Source of the DNA: Acholeplasma sp. | GTDB lineage: Bacteria > Bacillota_I > Bacilli_A > Acholeplasmatales > UBA5453 | Length of the DNA: 64,000 nucleotides | NCBI GenBank assembly: GCA_036677365.1 | Contig: JAVBWN010000015.1 | Span: 1 to 64,000, forward strand | Reading direction: 5' to 3' | In this document: positions 2,792-16,271 of the stretch, piece after piece | Position numbering within the stretch: the first letter of the stretch is position 1 | Layout of the letters: each line of letters starts with the position of its first letter | Notes under the pieces: generated by a model | The model's input: the letters and a program-made list of their open reading frames with translations, nothing else | Told to the model about the DNA's origin: nothing | Database searches by the model: none | Program-made: the position numbers and the translations under genes

Positions 2792-3017
2792 AGTCATCAA
2801 CTCCGAATTCATTGTACCATGAAGCATGGGTTTTTGCATTTAAAAAAGATGGTCAAAAGAGAGTTTTTTTTCAGCATCTAAAGAGAAGCTAAACTTGAAT
2901 GCCTAAAAACACAAAAATACCCATAGCAACATTTGAGAAGGCCAAAATTCGATGATTAATAGTTTTAAACATTCCCACACAAAACCCATTGTCCGCACTA
3001 TAGTCGTTTTCTTATAT

Positions 3018-3045
3018 GGTTTACATAATATACATTATAGGTACA
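3018..3045 (-). other. dif site (Xer chromosome dimer resolution site)
   Basis: Minus strand reads TGTACCTATAA-TGTATA-TTATGTAAACC, an 11-6-11 layout close to B. subtilis dif (ACTTCCTAGAA-TATATA-TTATGTAAACT) and E. coli dif (GGTGCGCATAA-TGTATA-TTATGTTAAAT). It sits in a ~750-bp ORF-free gap near parEC. Confidence 0.85.
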
Positions 3046-3542
3046 AATACAAAATTATAATGGTAAACTTCTATCGATTAAATGATGTCAGTAAAATAGG
3101 TTTTATATTGTTTAATCGAGGTGTTTAGCGTCTATTTTTGCACTTAATTATACTCATGAATCAATTATTATATAATTAAATATAGGTGAGAGAGGTGTTT
3201 TGCGCGAATGACATCTGCTATCCTTAATATTTGTCCATCTAGGCCCTTTTTAGGGTATTTTTACCCATTTTGAGTATAGTTCAAGCAATCCCACTTCTCT
3301 TCTATTACTTCTTCTTTTTCTCATGGGTATATGTGTCATTTTTCATGTAGACAATATTTTCAAATGATCTTAAATTCACTTCTATATTCTGATGGTTGGT
3401 AGGAGTCGCATTCGTGGTTTATAGTGAATTGGATTCTAGACGAATTAATATGACGTTTTATTCATATTAGAAAATATGGTTACTATTGATGTTTAAATGG
3501 AAACAGTCTAAAATAAAAGTATACAAGAAAAGAGGTTAATTC

Positions 3543-3980
3543 ATGGCAGTTACTTTTAAACGCGTTGTTTTGAATCATACCCACTTGGCACAAGCCATGG
3601 GTAAATCCGCTTCTGAGGTACACGATATACTTCAAACTTATTTAGATCAAAATGGTGTTACCGATTTTGAACCATACACTTTTGAAATGGTCATTAAACA
3701 AGGGGGCGTCAAAAATGTCCTTTACGTTAAATATGCTTCAATACCTGCAAGCATGAAATCCGCTGGTGGTATCAAAGTTATTCCTTTGAAGCGAAATGAC
3801 TTCTTGGAATGTGAAATTCCTAAATCCGATTTCGAATCCTTCATGGATGGCAAATTCAATGAGGACTTGAATGAATACATGAAGGTCAATAACCTTCAAG
3901 GTGATTTAACAAGTGTGTTCGCGCTCGTTCAAGAAAAAGACACGCACATACGTGTACTTTTCCCTTACAAGTCAAAATAG
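3543..3980 (+). CDS. Hypothetical protein, possibly GyrI-like small-molecule-binding fold
   Basis: 145 aa, GAGG RBS, own terminator. The C-terminal pattern IKVIPLKRNDFLECEI...LNEYMKVNNL...IRVLFPY resembles GyrI-like domains by eye. Confidence 0.6.
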   Translation: MAVTFKRVVLNHTHLAQAMGKSASEVHDILQTYLDQNGVTDFEPYTFEMVIKQGGVKNVLYVKYASIPASMKSAGGIKVIPLKRNDFLECEIPKSDFESFMDGKFNEDLNEYMKVNNLQGDLTSVFALVQEKDTHIRVLFPYKSK

Positions 3981-4019
3981 AAAAAAAAACGCATATCGTT
4001 GTGATATGCGTTAATTTTT
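3981..4019. terminator. Bidirectional terminator between convergent genes
   Basis: AACGCATATC-gttgt-GATATGCGTT flanked by A and T tracts. Confidence 0.8.
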
Positions 4020-5088
4020 ATTCCATGTGATTGAATAGATCCAATTGTTGTGGATTGAATTTTTCTAGTTTGTCTGCAACCCTCAACCATTGAGCGGTTC
4101 GACCACTGCCAAGGGGACGAATCATCCCACGCTCTTTTAAGCTCATGAGGGTTCGATTGATGGTAGCGTCTGAGGCATACGGGTGTTTGACACGTATGTC
4201 TTTTTTACTGAATGTCGCAGGACCACTGAGAATGGTGCCCTCGATGCTGTTGGTTTTGTTCATTTTACGTTCAAACTCATACTCATGGGCCTTCGTCTCG
4301 ACATTTCGATGTAATGTCTCTAGGACATTGACAAAAATGCGTTGGATGGGTTCGATTTGTGAGAACCCTTCGCTCCAGTTGAATGAGGCTTGGATGAAAC
4401 CACTGTCGAATTGGGCTTGTAGCGGTAATAAGGCTTGGAAAAACGAATCGTAGCGGCATACCTTGAAGTATTTCGCTGCGAGGGTGTAAATCACCATCAA
4501 ACCAATCAAATCGTTCTTATCGGTAAATAAATTGAGTTTGACAAAATCAATATAGAAATTGGTCATGATTTGGACAATCTCGTATTTATTATTTCTACGG
4601 TGTTGGTGGAACAATTCAATGATTTTCTTCAGTTTATCTTCTGAATTCAATTCATCAAAGGATTTCGCCAATTTTTCTACTTTCGCTTTAGGGTCTTTGA
4701 CCAAACGGATATCTTCATAACCTCGAAAGAGTGTCAATGTGAGGTCTTTAATCTCATTGGTTGTCAAATCGAATGTATCTGCCAATTGTTGAACACGCGT
4801 AAGGATTTCTTTGATATTTTTAAGCAAAATTTCATCTCTGTTTTTAGAAACGAAATCTTTTCTTGGGTCAGACAGTAATTTGATTCTTGCAGGTGTTAAA
4901 TTGAGCTTTAGATAATAGGCTAAAGCTTGGGTATCGAGTTCGAGTGTGGTTCGCGCCATGACCTCGTCATCGCGGCTAAATAAGGCTTTGTAGTAATAGG
5001 ATTGACCTTTTTGTTCATAAAGCTTGAACAGTTGCATGACCAAGTCATTGGGTAAATGAAGTCTTTCCATGTTGCCTAAACATTTCAA
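4018..5088 (-). CDS. Fic-family protein with degenerate catalytic motif, C-terminal winged HTH and terminal QLDLF
   Basis: FVKLNLFTDKNDLIGLM aligns to the Fic motif HPFxDGNGRxxR but lacks the His and Arg residues. The C-terminus has an HTH-like segment (SKKDIR...SDATINRTLMSLKERGMIRPLGSGRTAQW). TTG start with GGAGGT RBS. Confidence 0.7.
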   Translation of the reverse strand: MKCLGNMERLHLPNDLVMQLFKLYEQKGQSYYYKALFSRDDEVMARTTLELDTQALAYYLKLNLTPARIKLLSDPRKDFVSKNRDEILLKNIKEILTRVQQLADTFDLTTNEIKDLTLTLFRGYEDIRLVKDPKAKVEKLAKSFDELNSEDKLKKIIELFHQHRRNNKYEIVQIMTNFYIDFVKLNLFTDKNDLIGLMVIYTLAAKYFKVCRYDSFFQALLPLQAQFDSGFIQASFNWSEGFSQIEPIQRIFVNVLETLHRNVETKAHEYEFERKMNKTNSIEGTILSGPATFSKKDIRVKHPYASDATINRTLMSLKERGMIRPLGSGRTAQWLRVADKLEKFNPQQLDLFNHME

Positions 5089-5107
5089 AGTAACACCTCC
5101 TTAAATC

Positions 5108-6745
5108 TTAGACGTGGAATACAGATCCACCGATGAATTCTCTTAATAATGAGTTATTTGGTACCAAATCGTCTTCAATGTCTTTGAAGTACTTCAAGAA
5201 CTTGATTAAACGGTTCGCGGTGATGAAGTGCTCAGAATCTCTTGGAATCGCATTTAAAGTTCTAAATGCATGTTTCTTCATGACGGCGAGTTCATATGTC
5301 AATTCAGAATTAAATACGTAATTCGCGGTTTCTTGGTATGGATAAATCCATTTAAATTCGCCACGTCTTACACTCGCCCACATCGCGATGGTTTCTTCCG
5401 CTGGTGAGTTTCTGAATTTTTGGTCACGGACGATACGTCTTAATAAACGGAGGTCCGTAAAACTGATTGGGTTATGGTTATCGATGTGCAATTGGGTTTG
5501 TGGGGCGATGAACACTTTGAATTTTTGATGGTGTGGAATCGATTCTGTCAATCGGTCATTCAATGCATGGATGCCTTCAATGATGATTGGTGTGGTTTCA
5601 CTGATTTTCACTTTACGGCCATCTTCACGTTTCCCAAGTTTAAAGTTAAAGTGTGGTAATGTGACCTCTTCGCCTTGAATCAACGCCAACATTTGTTCAT
5701 CAAACAGCTGAATGTCTAGTGCTTCAATGTGTTCTAGGTCTGGATTGCCAAATTCATCTTTAGGGGCTTGTGATTTAGGTTTGTAGTAATCATCGATGGA
5801 AATCATCAATGGCTTAATCCCTCTGGATAAGAGTTCGATTCTCAAGCGGGTTGAGAATGTGGTTTTACCCGAGGAGGATGGTCCTGCGATCGCAATCAAA
5901 CGAATTGAATCGATGTCGGATGCAATTTTGTCCCCAAGTTCAGCCATTTGTCGGTTGTGTTTGGTTTCACACATATTGATGAGTTCAACCTCAAGACCTT
6001 TTTCAACGTATTGGTTGAGTTTTGAGATGTATTCACCACCGATGAGTTTACCCCATTTGGTCGCTTCTTTGATTGTTTTGGAGAAAATAGGTGCATCGTC
6101 AAATGGCGGAATAACGCCACCAAGTTCACTTCTTGGGTATTGAATGATGAATCCTGGATGATACAAACTTAAAGCGTATTTAGTCAAATAGCCTGTGCTT
6201 GGTAACATGTAACCAAACATGTAGTTGAAGTATTGGTCACAGGTGTACATATTGACCTTATCTTCGTCGCGGTACTTCAAAATGGCGACTTTGTCCAAAT
6301 GCCCACTGGATTTGTATAACTCCATGGCTTCTTCTAAATCCATGTTCTTACGAATGATTGGTAAATCGAGTTCAACCAAACGTTTGATTTCCGAATCGAT
6401 GGATTTGATGATGTTTCGATCGATTTTTTGATCTAAGTTTTCCAAAACCCCCAAAATGGCTCTAGACACGCTATAGTTGAATTTTACGGTAACGTTTGGA
6501 TACAGATTTCTCACGGCCATCGCAATCACATATCGGAGGGTCGCTTCGTAAATTCTTACAGCGTCGCGGTCTTTTAGATCTAAGAAGACCACGTCCGAAT
6601 TTTTAGTTAACGGGAATGTTAACTCACGAATTCGGTTGTTGACGGTGGCAGCATAAGCTTCAATACCTAGTTGATTCTTAAGTGCTTCGAGGGTAATGCC
6701 TGGGTCAAGTTCTAAGACTTGATTTTTAACGGTAATTCTAATCAT
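5108..6745 (-). CDS. Nucleoside (uridine) kinase family protein with N-terminal TGS/ThrRS-like domains
   Basis: Walker A AGPSSSGKTT, ISIDDYY, EGIHALN and RLLRRIVRD motifs; ThrRS-like N-terminal region. Start MIRITVK has an AGGAG RBS. Confidence 0.85.
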   Translation of the reverse strand: MIRITVKNQVLELDPGITLEALKNQLGIEAYAATVNNRIRELTFPLTKNSDVVFLDLKDRDAVRIYEATLRYVIAMAVRNLYPNVTVKFNYSVSRAILGVLENLDQKIDRNIIKSIDSEIKRLVELDLPIIRKNMDLEEAMELYKSSGHLDKVAILKYRDEDKVNMYTCDQYFNYMFGYMLPSTGYLTKYALSLYHPGFIIQYPRSELGGVIPPFDDAPIFSKTIKEATKWGKLIGGEYISKLNQYVEKGLEVELINMCETKHNRQMAELGDKIASDIDSIRLIAIAGPSSSGKTTFSTRLRIELLSRGIKPLMISIDDYYKPKSQAPKDEFGNPDLEHIEALDIQLFDEQMLALIQGEEVTLPHFNFKLGKREDGRKVKISETTPIIIEGIHALNDRLTESIPHHQKFKVFIAPQTQLHIDNHNPISFTDLRLLRRIVRDQKFRNSPAEETIAMWASVRRGEFKWIYPYQETANYVFNSELTYELAVMKKHAFRTLNAIPRDSEHFITANRLIKFLKYFKDIEDDLVPNNSLLREFIGGSVFHV

Positions 6746-6746
6746 G

Positions 6747-9491
6747 TTACTCCTTCCAATCATCTTCTTCATCGAAGAGTGATAATTTTTTAATTTGGAT
6801 TTTTTTCGATTTAGACTCTTTTTCTACCGGTTTGGTTGGTGTGGTCTCAATCGTTGGACTGATTGCCGGTGATTGTTCGATCGGTTCAGTTTCAGCGGTG
6901 TGTTTAACTACAGGTTCGATTGGGGTTTCTTTGATGACGGTTTGAGCAATCACTTTAGGTTCTGGTTTTGGTTTTTCTACCTTGACCGGTTTCGCTTTTT
7001 GAACCGCGACCCCTTTTTCAACAATATCCTCATCGGAAGATTCATGTAGCGCAGCTTCAATCGTGATGAATAATGATTTACCAAAGGTATTGAAGTCGAC
7101 AAATGGTTTGCCATATTCTGCACTGCTCTTAATGTCTTCTACTTTAAGGGAAACGGAACCTTGTTTTGCTGTGATCAACACCGACACATTTTCTTTGATT
7201 TGTTCATTGGATAATCGAGATACGTCACGGATGAAGTGTGGGTTGCGTTTCTTCATAGCAAACAATTGGATTGGGTTTTTCAAACGCTTCGTCAATGGGA
7301 TGTTGCTTACTTTTTCACGTTTAATGTTGCCTAAAGAGGTTAAAATGACCAAGTCATCGGAGGATTTTGCATAAATTGCCTTGACGACTTTATCATCGCC
7401 AATGAGTGGTAAGGATTTGATGCCACTCGCTTGTGTCCCGTAAATAGGCACATCGTTCGCGCTGAATCGAAGGGCATACGCTTGTTTGGTAAATACGATG
7501 ATATTTTGTTTTGGACCAAGTTCTACGGATGTCAATTCATCGTTGTCATCGACTTTCATTGCACGGATTGGTTTTGTATACCTCGATACATTGAAATCTG
7601 CCAATTTGGTTTGCTTGATTTGACCGGTTTCGGTGATGAGTAAGAGGGTTTGGTCTTCATCAAAGTTGCTGATGCATAAAATTTTGATGATAAACTCATT
7701 TTTCTCAATTGGAATGATGTTGTTGATGAAAGAACCCAAATCTTTCCATTTGGTTTCTTCAATTTCAAACACTGGAATATATAAGTAGTTGCCTAAGGTG
7801 GTGAACATCAGTAGGGTATCTTTGGTTGACACTTCTTGGTCGAACAACATACCATCTTGTTCTTTCAATCCTGGTTGTTTAGAAGCCACATAGCTTCTGA
7901 GGTTTGAACGTTTGATGTAGCCATCTTTGGTTACACCAACCCTGACGCGCTCTTCACTGATGAGGTCAGATTTTTCAATCTTGATGGCTGAAATTTCTTC
8001 CTCAATTTGTGTTTTACGTTCAGTACCCACTTTAGAAGATACTTCTTTCAATTCTTTTTTAATGACCGATAACAATACTTGTTCATCGGACAAGACTTTG
8101 GTCAACCACTCGATTTTTTCAGAAAGTTCGTTTGACTCTTTGATTAAAGCATCAATATCCGTCGAGCTCAAACGATAGAGTTGTAAAGTCACGATGGCTT
8201 CGGCTTGTAACTCAGTGAATCCGAATGCATTCATGATGTTTTCTTTGGAATTTTGTTTGTTTTTGGATTGACGAATGATGTGAACGACTTCATCGACCAC
8301 ATCGACCATCTTAATCAAACCGTTGACGATATGCAATCGTTTCTCTGCACGATCCAATTCAAAGTTGGAACGATTGGTGATGACTTCTTTTTGGTGGTTA
8401 ATATACGCATCTAAGATGTCTAAAATACCCATTTGAACGGGTCTTTGATGGTGAATGGCCACCATATTGTAGTTATAAGTAATTTGTAAATCGGTATTTT
8501 TGAGTAAGTATGCCAAACATATGTCCGGATTGGAATCCTTTTTAAGTTCAATCGAGATTCTCATCCCTTCACGGTCGGATTCATCTCTCACTTCTTGAAT
8601 GTCTTCAAGTTTCTTATCAATTCGAAGCATGTCGATGGATTTCACCAATTCAGCTTTATTGACTTCAAACGGGATTTCGGAGACGACGATGCGGGTTTGG
8701 TCTTTATTAAAGGTTTCGAAAGACGTTTTGGAGCGGATGATGACTTTACCTGCCCCGGTTTCAAACGCTTGACGGATCCCTTCTTTACCTTGAACGATGG
8801 CCCCTGTTGGAAAATCAGGGCCTTGAACGATTTTTAAAATACGTTCGACGGTTAAATCCGGTTTGTCGATACGTTCAATGGTTGCTTTGATGATTTCTTT
8901 TAAATTGTGTGGTGGAATTTTGGTGGCGTAACCGGATGAAATCCCGTTTGCACCGTTGACCAAGAGGTTTGGAAACTTCGCTGGTAGAACAGTAGGTTCC
9001 AATTCTTCATCATCGAAGTTCGGAATGAATGGAACGGTCCTTTTATCAATATCAGCAATCAAAAATTCCGCTTCTTTAGACAAACGCGCTTCGGTATAAC
9101 GCATCGCTGCGGCAGAGTCGCCGTCGATCGAACCGTTGTTGCCGTGCATATCGATTAAGCATACGCCCATTTTGAAGTTTTGGCTCATACGTACCATGGC
9201 TTCATAAATCGATGAGTCGCCATGTGGGTGGTATTTCCCCATGACTTCTCCAGCGATACGGGCAGATTTTTTATAGGGTTTGTCATTGAACATACCCATT
9301 TTGTACATGGCAAAAAGAATGCGTCTTTGGACAGGTTTGAGGCCGTCACGCGCATCCGGTAATGCTCTATCTTGGATGATGTATTTGGAATAACGTCCAA
9401 AACGTTCCCCAACGATGTCTTCTAAACGTTCGCTGGTGATTTTCTCTTCGATAAAGGTATCAATGGCTTGGGAGACTGGTTTTTTACTCAT
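6747..9491 (-). CDS. parC: DNA topoisomerase IV subunit A
   Basis: YSKYIIQDRALPDARDGLKPVQRRI, YHPHGDSSIYEAMVRMSQ and AAMRYTEARL motifs. Directly follows parE; long C-terminal tail. Confidence 0.95.
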   Translation of the reverse strand: MSKKPVSQAIDTFIEEKITSERLEDIVGERFGRYSKYIIQDRALPDARDGLKPVQRRILFAMYKMGMFNDKPYKKSARIAGEVMGKYHPHGDSSIYEAMVRMSQNFKMGVCLIDMHGNNGSIDGDSAAAMRYTEARLSKEAEFLIADIDKRTVPFIPNFDDEELEPTVLPAKFPNLLVNGANGISSGYATKIPPHNLKEIIKATIERIDKPDLTVERILKIVQGPDFPTGAIVQGKEGIRQAFETGAGKVIIRSKTSFETFNKDQTRIVVSEIPFEVNKAELVKSIDMLRIDKKLEDIQEVRDESDREGMRISIELKKDSNPDICLAYLLKNTDLQITYNYNMVAIHHQRPVQMGILDILDAYINHQKEVITNRSNFELDRAEKRLHIVNGLIKMVDVVDEVVHIIRQSKNKQNSKENIMNAFGFTELQAEAIVTLQLYRLSSTDIDALIKESNELSEKIEWLTKVLSDEQVLLSVIKKELKEVSSKVGTERKTQIEEEISAIKIEKSDLISEERVRVGVTKDGYIKRSNLRSYVASKQPGLKEQDGMLFDQEVSTKDTLLMFTTLGNYLYIPVFEIEETKWKDLGSFINNIIPIEKNEFIIKILCISNFDEDQTLLLITETGQIKQTKLADFNVSRYTKPIRAMKVDDNDELTSVELGPKQNIIVFTKQAYALRFSANDVPIYGTQASGIKSLPLIGDDKVVKAIYAKSSDDLVILTSLGNIKREKVSNIPLTKRLKNPIQLFAMKKRNPHFIRDVSRLSNEQIKENVSVLITAKQGSVSLKVEDIKSSAEYGKPFVDFNTFGKSLFITIEAALHESSDEDIVEKGVAVQKAKPVKVEKPKPEPKVIAQTVIKETPIEPVVKHTAETEPIEQSPAISPTIETTPTKPVEKESKSKKIQIKKLSLFDEEDDWKE

Positions 9492-11442
9492 AATCTGCCT
9501 CCTTGATTTGATAATCGTCGTCATCGATGAATTCGACGTTGTGTTCAATCCATTCACGTCTTGGACCGACTTGGTCGCCCATCAAGATGGATACACGCTT
9601 TTCAGCTTCGCCTTCATCTTCTAAACGCACTTGAATGAGTGTTCTGGTTTTAGGGTCCATGGTGGTTTCCCACAGTTGATCAAAATTCATTTCCCCCAAC
9701 CCTTTGTAGCGTTGGATGGTGGTGTTGCCACCTTGGGTGAGGCGTTTTAATTCAATGTCATTCCACGCATAGTTGGAGATGAGTTTGCCACCCTTTTTCT
9801 GAGTGACTTTATATAAAGGTGGTAAAGCAATGTATAATTTGCCTGCTTCCACCAAGGGTTTCATATATCTAAAGAAGAATGTGATTAACAAGACTTGGAT
9901 GTGCGCACCGTCGGTATCCGCATCGGTCATGATGATGACTTTGTTATAATTACATTTACTGATGTCAAAATCGACACCAAAATCCGCACCAATGGTGTGA
10001 ATGATGGTATTGATTTCTTCATTTTTCAATATCGCATCCACATTGGCTTTCTCGGTGTTGATGACTTTACCACGCAAAGGTAAGATGGCTTGAAAGCGTC
10101 GGTCACGACCTTGTTTTGCTGACCCACCCGCGGAATCACCTTCGACTAAGAATAATTCGTTCTTCGTTTTATCTTTACCTTGAGCTGGGGTTAATTTACC
10201 CGATAATGAGACTTCTTTTTTATTTTTCTTTTTATCGCTTCTGGCTTCATCTCTGGCTTTACGTGCAGCTTCACGCGCTTTAAATGCATCGAAAGCACGT
10301 TTGATTAAGCCATAAGAAAAGTCCATGTTTTCTTCTAGGTAATAGGTTAATTTATCATAAATGATGGATTCCATCGCATTTCTTGCTTCAGGGGAACCCA
10401 ATTTGGATTTGGTTTGACCTTCAAATTCAAGGAATGCTTCAGGGATACGCACTGATATGACGGCAGTCATACCTTCACGGATATCTACGCCATCGAGGTT
10501 TTGGTCTTTTTCTTTCAATAGGCCATATTTTCTCGCATAATCATTGATGGCACGGGTCGATGCACTCTTGAACCCGGTTTCATGCGTACCGCCATCGCGG
10601 GTACGGACGTTATTGACAAATGAAATGATGGTTTCACTGTATTGGTTGGTGAATTGGAATGCTGTTTCAACTTCAATGGCATTGTTCTTATTGACAGTAT
10701 ATACACCCATCAAATCCTTAACAGGGTGGAATTCTTGTTTGCCTTTATTGAGAAATTCTACGTATTCAGAAATGCCACGTTCATATTGGAATACGTCGCT
10801 TTGATTGGTACGTTCGTCATTTAATGTAATCTTAAGATTGCGAATTAAAAAAGCACTCTCACGGAGTCGGTCTTTAATGGTATCATAGCTGTATAGTGTG
10901 GTTGAAAAAATCTTTGGATCTGGTTTAAACCAAACCGATGTCCCAGTTCGTCGTGTTTTACCGATTTCTTCTAATGGAGAAATGACTTTTCCACCTTCAG
11001 AGAAGCGTTGTTGCATGATGAGACCATCACGGTAAATGGTGACTTCAAGGAATGTCGATAAAGCGTTGACGACCGATGCACCAACCCCGTGCAAGCCCCC
11101 TGAAACCTTATAGCCACCTTCAGAACCAAACTTACCACCCGCATGTAAAACAGTAAAAATGATTTCTGTCGTTGGTCTGCCAGACTTATGTAACTTATAT
11201 GGCAAACCGCGACCAAAATCATTGATCACGATGCTATTATCATTTTTAATTACGACATTGATTTCAGACCCAAATCCAGATAGGGCTTCATCGATCGCGT
11301 TGTCGACAATTTCCCAAACCAAATGGTGTAAACCCCTGGTATCGGTAGACCCGATGTACATCCCAGGACGTTTCCTGACCGCTTCTAGTCCTTCTAGTAT
11401 CTGGATCGAATCTTCAGAATATGTCTTCTTCAATTCTTCCAT
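9484..11442 (-). CDS. parE: DNA topoisomerase IV subunit B
   Basis: LEAVRKRPGMYIGSTD, VEGDSAGGSAKQGRDR, PLRGKVIN, MTDADTDGAHI and QRYKGLGEM motifs; divergent from plsY. The ATG at 11466 sits 1 nt after a TGnTATAAT -10 box, so the start at 11442 (AGGA RBS) is preferred. Confidence 0.95.
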   Translation of the reverse strand: MEELKKTYSEDSIQILEGLEAVRKRPGMYIGSTDTRGLHHLVWEIVDNAIDEALSGFGSEINVVIKNDNSIVINDFGRGLPYKLHKSGRPTTEIIFTVLHAGGKFGSEGGYKVSGGLHGVGASVVNALSTFLEVTIYRDGLIMQQRFSEGGKVISPLEEIGKTRRTGTSVWFKPDPKIFSTTLYSYDTIKDRLRESAFLIRNLKITLNDERTNQSDVFQYERGISEYVEFLNKGKQEFHPVKDLMGVYTVNKNNAIEVETAFQFTNQYSETIISFVNNVRTRDGGTHETGFKSASTRAINDYARKYGLLKEKDQNLDGVDIREGMTAVISVRIPEAFLEFEGQTKSKLGSPEARNAMESIIYDKLTYYLEENMDFSYGLIKRAFDAFKAREAARKARDEARSDKKKNKKEVSLSGKLTPAQGKDKTKNELFLVEGDSAGGSAKQGRDRRFQAILPLRGKVINTEKANVDAILKNEEINTIIHTIGADFGVDFDISKCNYNKVIIMTDADTDGAHIQVLLITFFFRYMKPLVEAGKLYIALPPLYKVTQKKGGKLISNYAWNDIELKRLTQGGNTTIQRYKGLGEMNFDQLWETTMDPKTRTLIQVRLEDEGEAEKRVSILMGDQVGPRREWIEHNVEFIDDDDYQIKEADYE

Positions 11443-11584
11443 TAAATCAGTCCTTGCTTTAGTCATATTATACCAAATTTTAAACCGTTTTCACAATAAA
11501 AAATATAGTCATTTTGGATAAATGCGCTATTTTAATTGGAATTTCAAAATATATGATATAATATTGTCATTACGAGGTGAAAAG

Positions 11585-12256
11585 ATGGGCTTTATCGCAA
11601 TACAAATCGGTTTAATTTTATTCGCTTATCTGATTGGTTCAATACCGAATGGACTATGGATTGGCAAAGTTTTCTTAAAAATTGATTTAAGGGAACATGG
11701 TTCAAAAAATATCGGGGCTTCTAACGCCCTCAGAGTGATGGGACTCAAGCTTGGCATATTGACTTTTGCATTAGACGCACTCAAAGGTGCACTCCCAATC
11801 ATCATCGTTAGAATCTTGAAATCCACAATCGAACTTACAACCAATGTGGTTATATTTGATCAACCTTATGACTATGAAATCGTCTTTGGTGTGGTCGCAG
11901 TCTTAGGCCATACCTTCCCACTATTTAACCACTTTAAAGGTGGTAAAGCGGTGGCGTCATCTGCAGGTATCGTGTTGACGTTAACACCAATTGCCGGCAT
12001 TTTATGTATTTTCACTTACATCATCACTGTCATTTTAACGAAGTATGCCTCTTTGGGGTCGACTTTCGCTGCACTTACTGTATTCATCGCGGCACTCGCT
12101 GAATTTTGGATTAGAGACATCATGTTAGAACAATTGTTTGTGCTCATTGTCTATTCATTGATGATTCTATTCATATTCTACCGCCATCGTGAAAACTATA
12201 AGCGCTTATTAAAAGGCACTGAGAATAAGATGTCGTTTACAAAGAAAAAAGTGTAA
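11585..12256 (+). CDS. plsY: Glycerol-3-phosphate acyltransferase PlsY
   Basis: YLIGSIP, GSKNIGASN, DALKG, GHTFP, FKGGKAVA and HRENYKRL motifs. Confidence 0.95.
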   Translation: MGFIAIQIGLILFAYLIGSIPNGLWIGKVFLKIDLREHGSKNIGASNALRVMGLKLGILTFALDALKGALPIIIVRILKSTIELTTNVVIFDQPYDYEIVFGVVAVLGHTFPLFNHFKGGKAVASSAGIVLTLTPIAGILCIFTYIITVILTKYASLGSTFAALTVFIAALAEFWIRDIMLEQLFVLIVYSLMILFIFYRHRENYKRLLKGTENKMSFTKKKV

Positions 12257-14666: not shown

Positions 14667-15201
14667 ATTTTTGATAAATTCCGATTCTTTTGATCCCATG
14701 AACACGGTCTTTATTGAGGGTGATGCCTGAAACAACTGGACATGGATTCGATGATTCGATTTCAATGATGATTTTGCCTTCTTTGCTCAATATCGAAAGC
14801 ACCCCTTTTAAAATGGGTTCGATGTCTATAGCATACGGTGGGTCTAGAAAGATATAGTCAAATTTAACCTGTTGTCTTTCATAGAAATGCAACGCTTCTT
14901 TGTAATCGAGTGCTGTAATGGTTGCCCCTGTGCTTAAATTGGCTTCATTCATCTTTAATGATTTGTATGCCAAGGGGTGATGGTCATTTAAATAAATTTT
15001 GGTTGCGCCACGTGAATAGGCTTCAAACCCATAAGCGCCAGACCCAGCGAATAAATCGAGTACAGTACCATCGATTTGAAACAACATATTGAACACAGCC
15101 CCCCGCACGAGTGAGGCCGTTTCTTTGGTGTCTTCACTCAAACTGATGAGGGTCTTACCTTTCAAAGTACCGGCAATGATTTTTAATTTGACCTGTTTCA
15201 T
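14665..15201 (-). CDS. rsmD: 16S rRNA m2G966 methyltransferase RsmD family
   Basis: KIIAGTLKG, LDLFAGSGAYGFEAYSRGA and FLDPPY motifs. Confidence 0.88.
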   Translation of the reverse strand: MKQVKLKIIAGTLKGKTLISLSEDTKETASLVRGAVFNMLFQIDGTVLDLFAGSGAYGFEAYSRGATKIYLNDHHPLAYKSLKMNEANLSTGATITALDYKEALHFYERQQVKFDYIFLDPPYAIDIEPILKGVLSILSKEGKIIIEIESSNPCPVVSGITLNKDRVHGIKRIGIYQK

Positions 15202-16271
15202 TCGAACAATTTTAAAATCGCCTTATTGTAATAGAGGTTATTAAAATAAGTGGTTTTCTTCGAAATCAAATCCAAATCCATCAAATCACGGTAACGTTTG
15301 ATGATGGTCTTCGATAATACACCAAAATGGGCTTGTAAAGGTTCATTTTCAAGGTAGATGACTCGGTGACTCACATGGATCATTTCAAGTAAACGACGCT
15401 TTTGATAGATTGTATGGTCGCTTTCTTCAATTTTTTCTTCTTGTTTCAATTTGATACGGTTGTAGCCCGTAATCATTCGATTGGCATCCTTAATGGCTGC
15501 TTTTAAACCTGTTAAGTAGTAAACGATGAAGCCATTGATGTCATCTTCAACCAGGGCTTTTTTGCGGACATCTTCAATTTGCTTTAAGTGTCTGGTTAAA
15601 GGAATGAAATGTTTAATGCCATCAAATTCAATCAAATAAAGCTGAGAAGCCATACGAGCGAGTTCCACATTCCCAATTAAAAATGGTAAGGACGTCGCGA
15701 TTTGATAATACAGTAACGCGGCACGGACATACACAGGAATGTCATCACGGTACATGAACAATTCCATTTCTTCCATGATGGTCACCATCGATTCTGGGTC
15801 TGGTGGAATGTAGGTTGCTTGTTCCATGGATGGCCCAACAAATGATTGGGTACGTCTAAATTCGCCTGGGTATTGGTTTTGATGTTTGGAAAATAAAGCG
15901 TAATGTAAATCTTTCAAGAATCGGTTCGCGTAACCGATTTTTTTCATGTGAGCAGGTGCTTCGTCATAGGTTTCTTGAAAACTGAGTAAGTCATTGTAAA
16001 ACAAGTTAAAACCGCTTGGTGCGTATAAATCACTGAAGTTATAATCACCAATCGATGTTCTCATCCAATCGAGCATTTCAGCGTCTTGAATCAGTCTGAA
16101 AAAGGCTTTATTGAGTGGGGATTCGAGTGGCAAAAGTCGATTGATGTCATCGACCAATTGATCGATGCGTGCATCTTTTTTAGAGGTTATGTAAAGACCA
16201 TTCAATGTGTATGGAACAAATACATTGATTTTCTTTACCCCGTAAGGCTTTTGTTCGTATGTACCTAGCAT
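15198..16271 (-). CDS. Fic-family protein with degenerate catalytic motif
   Basis: PGEFRRTQSFVG and YIPPDP are Fic-typical. The catalytic motif reads YQIATSLPFLIGNVELARM instead of HPFLDGNGRxxR. ATGA overlap with rsmD. Confidence 0.75.
   Translation of the reverse strand: MLGTYEQKPYGVKKINVFVPYTLNGLYITSKKDARIDQLVDDINRLLPLESPLNKAFFRLIQDAEMLDWMRTSIGDYNFSDLYAPSGFNLFYNDLLSFQETYDEAPAHMKKIGYANRFLKDLHYALFSKHQNQYPGEFRRTQSFVGPSMEQATYIPPDPESMVTIMEEMELFMYRDDIPVYVRAALLYYQIATSLPFLIGNVELARMASQLYLIEFDGIKHFIPLTRHLKQIEDVRKKALVEDDINGFIVYYLTGLKAAIKDANRMITGYNRIKLKQEEKIEESDHTIYQKRRLLEMIHVSHRVIYLENEPLQAHFGVLSKTIIKRYRDLMDLDLISKKTTYFNNLYYNKAILKLFE

Follow-up and report, generated by a model that had tools for sequence, protein, structure and literature searches.

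A degenerate Fic-fold protein with a clamp-binding-type tail, encoded in the topoisomerase IV operon of Acholeplasma and its relatives

Background

Why should a protein with the fold of a Fic enzyme and without its active site be encoded in the same operon as the two subunits of topoisomerase IV (Topo IV)? This question is raised by a stretch of 64,000 nucleotides of Acholeplasma sp. (GenBank assembly GCA_036677365.1, contig JAVBWN010000015.1), called here the window, which is the first 64 kb of a contig (C15) in a genome of 1.97 Mb that is 99.9% complete; the named records nearest to it are those of Paracholeplasma and Acholeplasmataceae. On the minus strand of the window, parE, parC, a TGS/uridine-kinase-like gene (the "kinase" gene below) and a gene of 356 codons constitute one unit running from a promoter to a terminator. 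We call the product of this last gene (4018..5088, minus strand) pFic: it consists of an N-terminal helical part, a degenerate Fic core, a winged helix and a disordered tail. A preliminary description, made from the letters of the window, had seen in it a Fic-like protein turned into a non-enzymatic adaptor or regulator, linking Topo IV, DNA and the sliding clamp at the terminus.

Results

A Fic fold deprived of its active site

Current family models do not recognise pFic: no Fic match was obtained at E ≤ 0.1 in Pfam or in NCBIfam, where there were only spurious matches below threshold (MtrB). A first homologue search returned 23 clusters at 37-91% identity, none of them annotated. We aligned the window protein with 18 of these clusters, five near-duplicates being left out, and the profile of the resulting 19 sequences (alignment A1) found one significant solved protein, the Fido-domain protein of Bordetella bronchiseptica (PDB 8uqu, E 1.8e-16), with residues 25-335 of pFic facing residues 45-363 of 8uqu, through GKGRGAKW. 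An AlphaFold2 model calculated on A1 (mean predicted local distance difference test score, pLDDT, 85; predicted template modelling score, pTM, 0.72) was compared with the PDB by means of Foldseek: among the matches listed, all 16 at E ≤ 0.001 are Fic proteins. The Foldseek probability is 1.00 for 4rgl, 8uqu, 7xux, 8cil and 3eqx, with template modelling scores of at most 0.85 when normalised to 8uqu, and the matches comprise the full-length DUF4172-Fic-winged-helix proteins SoFic (3eqx), CbFic2 (8cil) and 7xux. Hence the Fic-like fold that had been proposed from the letters is borne out both by the profile match to 8uqu and by the structural comparison, though it is invisible to Pfam and NCBIfam.

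In the profile alignment, IHPFPDGNGRMSRLL of 8uqu aligns with LNLFTDKNDLIGLMV of the window. The degenerate motif itself, LNLFTDKNDLIGL (residues 185-197; 4498..4536, minus strand; placed by the hidden Markov model alignment to 8uqu), has N186 in place of the catalytic histidine and L194 and L197 in place of the two arginines: where an enzyme has HxFx(D/E)GN(G/K)R, the window reads N-L-F-T-D-K-N-D-L. The loss of these residues, already noticed in the preliminary description, is not peculiar to this genome. A broad alignment set 33 pFic sequences, 13 near ones and 20 from other families, against four active relatives which the profile search had supplied: the catalytic histidine and both arginines are replaced in all 33 pFic, while the four active relatives retain IHPFxDGNGRxxR; the asparagine of GNG is kept in 29 of the 33, and parts of the P-F also persist. 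Likewise the inhibitory-helix motif (S/T)xxxE(G/N) is absent from pFic, the glutamate of SNRLEG in 8uqu being aligned to a hydrophobic residue. Because the catalytic histidine, both arginines and the inhibitory glutamate are replaced, we concluded that pFic has a Fic fold but lacks every feature by which the enzymes are defined. Many polar residues near the old active-site helix and the connecting helix (N177, D181, N192, Q244, R250, H268, N277 and K278) are nevertheless invariant in A1.

We scanned 1.84 billion cluster representatives with the pFic profile and obtained 896 matches at E ≤ 0.001, 115 of them at E ≤ 1e-30; an intact Fic motif first appears among the matches at an E value of about 1e-22. 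A protein atlas gives a similar picture: near the query there are only unnamed "hypothetical protein" clusters, and Fic, DUF4172 and HTH_DeoR clusters lie farther off.

The window encodes a second Fic-domain protein (15198-16271, minus strand, 357 residues, Pfam Fic E 2e-10), which also lacks the catalytic histidine, its motif being LPFLIGNVELAR; the gene upstream of it presumably encodes an RsmD-like methyltransferase, to judge by eye from the sequence. A profile comparison with hhalign found no kinship between this protein and pFic (probability 0.14), and this candidate relative was dropped. Two further Fic-domain open reading frames (ORFs) are found on contigs C37 and C12 of the genome.

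A basic winged helix and a clamp-type tail

In the AlphaFold2 model, the long connecting helix of pFic is followed by a C-terminal winged helix-turn-helix (residues ~282-337; 4078..4245, minus strand; isoelectric point ~11), made of helices 282-288, 295-301 and 307-319 and of strands 323-326 and 333-336. pFic and its active relatives have S306, T309, I310, R312, G327, G329, R330 and W334 in common as conserved residues, so that the winged-helix-like tail of the preliminary description is both present in the model and conserved. Of two proteins of this kind, CbFic2 is described as binding DNA via this domain and CccR as acting at its own promoter (PMC10628234). By analogy, the winged helix of pFic would be expected to bind DNA.

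Beyond the winged helix comes the motif QLDLF (residues 348-352; 4033..4047, minus strand), in a tail which the model leaves disordered, with pLDDT below 50 at residues 340-345 and 348-356. Throughout the 19 sequences of A1, Q348, L349 and F352 do not vary, and residues 337-347 do not contain a single invariant column. The consensus of clamp-binding peptides is QL[S/D]LF or, in a wider form, QxxLF, the critical positions being 1, 4 and 5, and the C-terminal motif of Bacillus subtilis PolC is QLSLF (PMC12309361). We inspected the last 16 residues of pFic in 80 related loci, kept out of 238 confirmed stretches: 68 have Q[LIMV]x[LIMF]F (QLSLF in 44 loci), four a hexapeptide form QLDL[KN][IL], six the same spacing without the glutamine (SLNLF, ELPLF) and two nothing recognisable. 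A pentapeptide or hexapeptide form of clamp type is thus present in 72 of the 80 relatives, and the QLDLF that had attracted attention in the window is conserved well beyond it.

Within this genome, Q[LIM]x[LIMF]F occurs in the last 14 residues of only 2 of the 2619 ORFs of at least 80 residues. The ORF other than pFic encodes a PgpA-like protein of 183 residues (contig C14:97902-98453, plus strand; Pfam PgpA E 4e-15), which ends in KQMSLFD. An ORF of 1482 residues on contig C11, which we take to be PolC from its size and tail, ends in IEHGLFAL, unlike the QLSLF of B. subtilis; because of this ending, the tail of pFic is nearer to the consensus than that of the presumed replicase.

We then modelled the complex of the DnaN clamp of this genome (with a custom alignment of 16 rows, chosen from 24 loci) and residues 282-356 of pFic. 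The score is 0.33 (runs at 0.33, 0.26 and 0.40) while the best of three controls reaches 0.00; the runs have at least 81% of their contacts in common, and the pLDDT of the partner is at least 69. In the calibration of the tool, 116 of 157 solved complexes attained the mark, as did 2 of 215 mismatched pairs; scores at or below 0.60 were those of only 18 of the 157 solved complexes and of both passing mismatches. Such a score expresses likeness and not binding, because clamp-peptide complexes have already been solved and the model may recall them.

A core gene under purifying selection

pFic is a core, mostly single-copy gene under strong purifying selection. Against the closest relative (locus L001), its ratio of nonsynonymous to synonymous substitution rates (dN/dS) is 0.021, with dN 0.013 and dS 0.63, the ratios of the three neighbouring genes lying between 0.008 and 0.039; the decay which had been considered for a dead enzyme is therefore not seen. 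Beyond L001 the ratio is unusable, dS being saturated (value -1), and the rows of ParC for loci L003 and L006 (ratio ~1, dN >2.7) are alignment artefacts, which we did not use. In a sample of the order, searched at E ≤ 1e-20, the pFic profile matched 127 of 151 genomes (110 of the 131 good-quality ones) and 34 of 36 genera, nearly always in single copy. At the level of the class (E ≤ 1e-8), 91 of 200 genomes gave a match, mostly in about ten families; the weakest of these matches may be ordinary Fic proteins.

Association with the topoisomerase IV genes

Enough upstream DNA is available for 72 of the 80 related loci. The order is parC-kinase-pFic in 63 of them and parC-pFic, without the kinase gene, in four Izemoplasma-like ones; of the remaining loci, an insertion separates parC from the kinase gene in two, and in three the genes are not adjacent. 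pFic thus comes directly after parC, or after parC and the kinase gene, in 67 of 72 informative loci. We also picked by hand, hence not at random, 20 far loci of seven further families from the class-level matches: 16 of these read parE-parC-pFic, all without the kinase gene, at identities of 25-37%. The synteny put forward in the preliminary description consequently extends beyond the order, adjacency to parC being kept across at least eight sampled families.

In genus g27, whose genomes measure 0.6-0.9 Mb, pFic was found in none of 14 genomes, and all 11 genomes tested give only a match to the ParC model that is below cut-off and of GyrA level; in the sister genus g28, pFic is present in 8 of 8 genomes, and the five tested all give a ParC-grade match as well as a GyrA-grade one. 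Similarly, neither pFic nor a ParC-grade match was found in genome G024, which is 100% complete.

ParC has a tail of its own

The ParC of the window carries a C-terminal extension of about 95 residues, rich in proline, glutamate and lysine, which ends in KKLSLFDEEDDWKE. Reading the sequence, one finds there the motif KLSLF (6774..6788, minus strand), then DEEDDWKE and the stop codon, so that the docking-type peptide stands behind a disordered linker. All 69 readable loci have, in the last 16 residues of ParC, either [LIFM][SDNTEK][LIM]F or Qxx[LIM]F: in 64 it is [KR][LFI][SD]LF followed by acidic residues, and in five it is Qxx[LIM]F (QQKLF, QLSLF). In the families of the far loci we found QLELF, QQKLF, QQSLF and QQTLF. 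ParC ends were also read from 20 genomes selected among those without pFic; families f8, f12 and f15 of this set have QMSLF, QMDLF, QISIF and QLSIF, and the f18 genomes have a ParC without the extension. In the small genomes of families f10, f11, f17, f23 and f26 (L168-L174, L182, L185), a motif (I/L)x(I/V)(D/E)DFL(D) replaces the LF-type tail.

The tail of ParC is therefore more widespread than pFic, while within the Acholeplasmatales it is devoid of the canonical glutamine, and two proteins of one operon, ParC and pFic, carry the same kind of docking peptide. These ends suggest that Topo IV may itself be a client of the clamp in many Bacilli outside the Bacillales.

Layout and expression of the operon

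Upstream of parE, a promoter-like site (11467..11496, minus strand) consists of TTGTGA, 18 nt and an extended -10 box TGGTATAAT, with 10 of 12 matches and a TG before the -10; it is the best site in the search, and its TTG..TTTGGTATAAT block is kept in the upstream-region alignments of relatives. The parE gene, for subunit B of Topo IV (9484..11442, minus strand; NCBIfam TIGR01058 parE_Gpos, 987 bits for a cut-off of 900), has a longest ORF extending to 11466; its start is most likely 11442, because the -10 box abuts the ATG at 11466 and relatives keep AAGGA-N9-ATG at 11442. The stop codon of parE (9484-9486) and the ATG of parC (9491) lie in an overlap of 8 nt (ATGAGTAA), with AAGGAGG upstream of this ATG. 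The parC gene, for subunit A (6747..9491, minus strand; TIGR01061 parC_Gpos, 972 bits for a cut-off of 813), stops at 6747-6749 and, after a gap of 1 nt, the kinase gene begins with an ATG at 6745, GGAAGGAG being upstream. The kinase gene (5108..6745, minus strand; 545 residues) encodes a TGS/ThrRS-N-like part, only weakly like the N-terminus of ThrRS, and a uridine-kinase-like P-loop part (Pfam PRK E 5e-17; NCBIfam udk models under their cut-offs). It stands between parC and pFic only in loci of Acholeplasmatales type and is missing from the four loci of another order and from 20 of 20 far loci. pFic starts with a TTG at 5088, 19 nt after the stop codon of the kinase gene (5108) and with AGGAGG 7 nt upstream. 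The unit is closed by an intrinsic terminator (3988..4012, minus strand), a stem of 10 pairs followed by T8, which is the sole strong hairpin with a T-run after the last gene. The junctions enumerated in the preliminary description (one overlap, gaps of 1 and 19 nt, one terminator) are accordingly all present.

Four RNA libraries, from three studies, yielded contigs that agree with the operon at 99% or more. These contigs bridge kinase and pFic (X17, 4523-5607; X16, 4624-5296), parC and kinase (X18, 6538-6788), and parE and parC (X15, X16 and X18), which fits expression and co-transcription of the operon. Positions 3400-3953 are uncovered in three of the four runs, a gap from which we draw no inference. 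A high depth and joints at 9494-10047 are accompanied by many loose ends and resemble parE of other organisms.

Two observations concern the borders of the unit. Blocks conserved within each clade lie upstream of the -35 box of parE (11497-11600 in the window, and also in L001-L066): the near clade has GCAAATTAAAT, and the larger one TAAAACAT..TC-AAA. These blocks could be operator or UP elements. On the other side, an ORF of 145 residues (3543-3980, plus strand), convergent with pFic, lies between the terminator and the dif-like site; it has no family match, and its protein was matched in one of the 80 related loci (L001, at 85%).

The dif-like site and the terminus

A dif-like site with core TATAATGTATATTATGTAAAC on the minus strand (3016..3043) is found 975 nt downstream of pFic. 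Its identification as dif is presumptive. The search, made with a 22-nt dif core, gave one match at up to 3 mismatches and none in 100 shuffles, and the 16-nt core of the site is unique in the 1.97-Mb genome. In 21 of the 80 loci, the same core is present, with at most 2 mismatches and in the same orientation, at 268-2021 nt downstream of pFic; with up to 4 mismatches allowed, most loci of the largest clade gave no such core within 10 kb. A skew profile of G over C at the scale of the window does not display any clear switch at the site.

In eight of ten relatives assembled as a single contig, dnaN and pFic are separated by 0.46-0.54 of the (rounded) chromosome; in the two others the distance is 0.27 and 0.31. 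Because this distance is about half a chromosome in eight cases out of ten, the operon is usually close to the terminus. The proximity to dif reported for the window is hence real, but it is not found in every clade: the most simple explanation is that parEC has long occupied a terminus-proximal position, which provides a context and not a proof that pFic acts at dif.

Discussion

A proposed non-catalytic partner of topoisomerase IV

The reading that we favour, and which we would back about as readily as its negation, is that pFic is a non-catalytic accessory factor of Topo IV, docked on the clamp and binding DNA. According to this reading, pFic would have lost the chemistry of AMP transfer and would have been retained for binding: the basic winged helix would hold DNA while the flexible C-terminal QLxLF peptide would dock in the hydrophobic cleft of the DnaN clamp. 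Produced from the transcript of Topo IV, it would help or regulate this enzyme on clamp-marked, newly replicated DNA and at termination near dif. Since ParC carries a similar tail, the two clefts of a single clamp dimer might be filled by Topo IV and pFic together, or be disputed between them; the part of pFic would then be to tune the place or the time of decatenation, without being the sole bridge. A bolder version, which we put forward more tentatively and think rather less probable, makes Topo IV itself a client of the clamp through the peptide of ParC, and pFic a dedicated third partner, in a large block of Bacilli, wall-less and related ones, comprising the Acholeplasmatales, Izemoplasmatales-like bacteria and several further families. 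This third partner would share or contest the clamp ring, read DNA by its winged helix and aim decatenation at fresh DNA and at the terminus.

Several observations weigh against an accessory role at Topo IV and the clamp. Since ParC has a tail of its own, Topo IV does not need pFic in order to reach a partner common to both. The tail of pFic is not universal: in families f9, f14 and f28 the protein ends right after the winged helix, and in family f21 (L155-L158) pFic and parC, though on one contig, are 22-77 kb apart, which accounts for all four exceptions among the 20 far loci. Eight genomes of the order have ParC and no pFic detected at E ≤ 1e-20, several of them with parC near a contig end; conversely, genome G253 (family f14) has pFic while its single match to the ParC model is of GyrA level, whether through a gap in the assembly or as a genuine exception to the co-occurrence. 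The complex prediction with DnaN, which the preliminary description had named as a check, separates pFic (0.33) from the control (0.00) and speaks weakly for docking. The RNA contigs do not by themselves establish a single transcript, and carried-over DNA may have contributed to them. Finally, among longer proteins we found no longer or fused form of pFic at E ≤ 1e-10, which is weak evidence.

Two details of the sequences concerned should be added. The pFic match of G253 (contig C70:2764-3768) carries one in-frame TAA. The pFic of family f21, like representatives P0090, P0095, P0117 and P0121, has another conserved tail, roughly DDPRxxFG, which may be another docking peptide.

Other explanations

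If pFic docked on the clamp and bound DNA for a purpose unrelated to Topo IV, such as replication termination, dimer resolution or replication control, parEC would be its neighbour merely as an old resident of the terminus. This is unlikely in our opinion, although the location of the operon about half a chromosome away from dnaN in most single-contig relatives, the dif-like site downstream of pFic in 21 loci, including two where parC is not adjacent (L047 and L048), and the separation of pFic from parC in family f21 would all fit. A mere residence near the terminus hardly explains why pFic stays next to parC across at least eight sampled families at 25-35% identity, nor why it was not found where no ParC-grade match is seen (g27 and G024), since reduced genomes still terminate replication; moreover, no dif-like core turned up within 10 kb in most loci of the largest clade. 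Stricter than our own reading, on the other hand, is that of the preliminary description, in which pFic is the obligate adaptor bridging Topo IV to the clamp and to DNA at dif. The linkage in the operon, the absence of pFic where no ParC-grade match was found, its clamp-type tail and the precedent of Fic enzymes recognising ParE (PMC7479194) all agree with it. However, ParC ends in a conserved tail of its own in all 69 loci read, and has canonical forms elsewhere (QLELF, QMSLF, QLSIF, QISIF), including families mostly without pFic; therefore Topo IV needs no bridge made of pFic to reach such a partner. Besides, the pFic of families f9, f14 and f28 remains next to parC without any tail. We consequently regard the obligate adaptor as very unlikely: of the adaptor or regulator first proposed, the dead fold, the winged helix and the tail stand, and the bridging of Topo IV to the clamp lacks support.

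The conserved and basic winged helix also invites one to see in pFic a transcriptional autoregulator of the parE-parC operon, resembling CccR, with a dead Fic domain serving for dimerisation or sensing. The DNA binding of CccR and CbFic2, which have the same architecture (PMC10628234), and the conserved blocks upstream of the -35 box of parE in each clade are in keeping with such a role; but a plain repressor would have no use for the clamp-type tail kept in 72 of 80 relatives, and by eye, without a formal motif search, we saw no palindrome common to the promoter alignments of the two clades. These alignments are insufficient to judge autoregulation, which we hold to be distinctly improbable on the whole. 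Least probable of all in our view, indeed very doubtful, is an enzyme whose chemistry would be independent of the canonical histidine and arginines and whose substrate could be Topo IV or else a nucleotide delivered by the adjacent kinase. The invariant polar residues around the old active-site helix and the asparagine of GNG could be taken as remnants of such a chemistry, but the general base and both phosphate-binding arginines are replaced in 33 of 33 sequences, and outside one order the kinase gene has gone from the operon while pFic stays.

Significance and comparison with known systems

What is understood of the targeting of Topo IV comes mainly from E. coli, where it depends on MukBEF and SeqA; most bacteria lack these factors. 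The locus described here is a conserved and compact candidate for such targeting, in which ParC and an operon-encoded pseudo-Fic each bear a clamp-type tail. The Fic superfamily thereby gains a pseudoenzyme of housekeeping type, and a family that escapes the current Pfam and NCBIfam models receives a name and a hypothesis. Should pFic prove to be the third partner envisaged above, the system would be a clamp-based counterpart of the SeqA and MukBEF targeting of E. coli, built on a retired AMPylase fold. In the full-text literature, a coverage outside which most subscription journals remain, we found no Fic-fold client of the clamp and no Topo IV subunit, ParC included, with a clamp motif; in agreement with the preliminary description, we found no published account of such a system.

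The closest known proteins are the class II Fic proteins (SoFic, 3eqx; CbFic2, 8cil; CccR; the Bordetella protein 8uqu), which have the same three-part architecture and the same fold as pFic, together with the winged-helix residues S/T-I-x-R-x-L and GxGRxxxW/Y. Unlike them, pFic has no HxFx(D/E)GN(G/K)R, no inhibitory glutamate and no Pfam Fic match; it has an added tail of clamp type, and it is a core gene fixed beside parC, not an effector or a toxin. The FicT-type AMPylases resemble it in that a Fic fold is tied to Topo IV: Fic AMPylases modify GyrB and ParE/GrlB at Tyr109 (PMC7479194). However, pFic is unable to AMPylate by the known mechanism, is vertically inherited and is not close to the class I FicT, and any contact of pFic with ParE is presumptive. 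Nor does the locus look like a FicTA module, with its dead motif, the 545-residue kinase upstream, the terminator downstream, no antitoxin-like gene adjoining and a core distribution. The FicT precedent invoked at the outset is hence a loose one: active Fic enzymes do target ParE/GrlB, but the closest active relatives of pFic are DUF4172-Fic-winged-helix proteins (SoFic, CbFic2, CccR) and not FicT.

Like the clients of the beta-clamp (PolC, Pol IV, MutS/L, Hda), pFic carries a consensus pentapeptide on a flexible C-terminal tail, and the majority form of its family, QLSLF, is the one given for B. subtilis PolC (PMC12309361); it differs from these clients in being a pseudoenzyme with a winged helix. 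A functional analogy can be drawn with SeqA and MukBEF, by which the Topo IV of E. coli is targeted (PMC11253446): here too a non-catalytic partner associated with DNA would place Topo IV behind the forks or at regions of the chromosome. There is no homology, the landmark would be the sliding clamp and not hemimethylated GATC or a complex of the SMC (structural maintenance of chromosomes) type, and on the side of pFic the function is a conjecture of ours. Finally, the degenerate FIC domains reported for Bartonella effectors (10.1101/2020.04.17.046482, PMC8401265) provide a precedent for Fic folds acting as binding modules without the canonical motif; those effectors are secreted, directed at the host and derived from FicTA, whereas pFic is a chromosomal gene of housekeeping type. 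Degenerate FIC domains and clients of the clamp are thus both of kinds already known, and what distinguishes pFic is a link to Topo IV which is unusually clear and can be tested.

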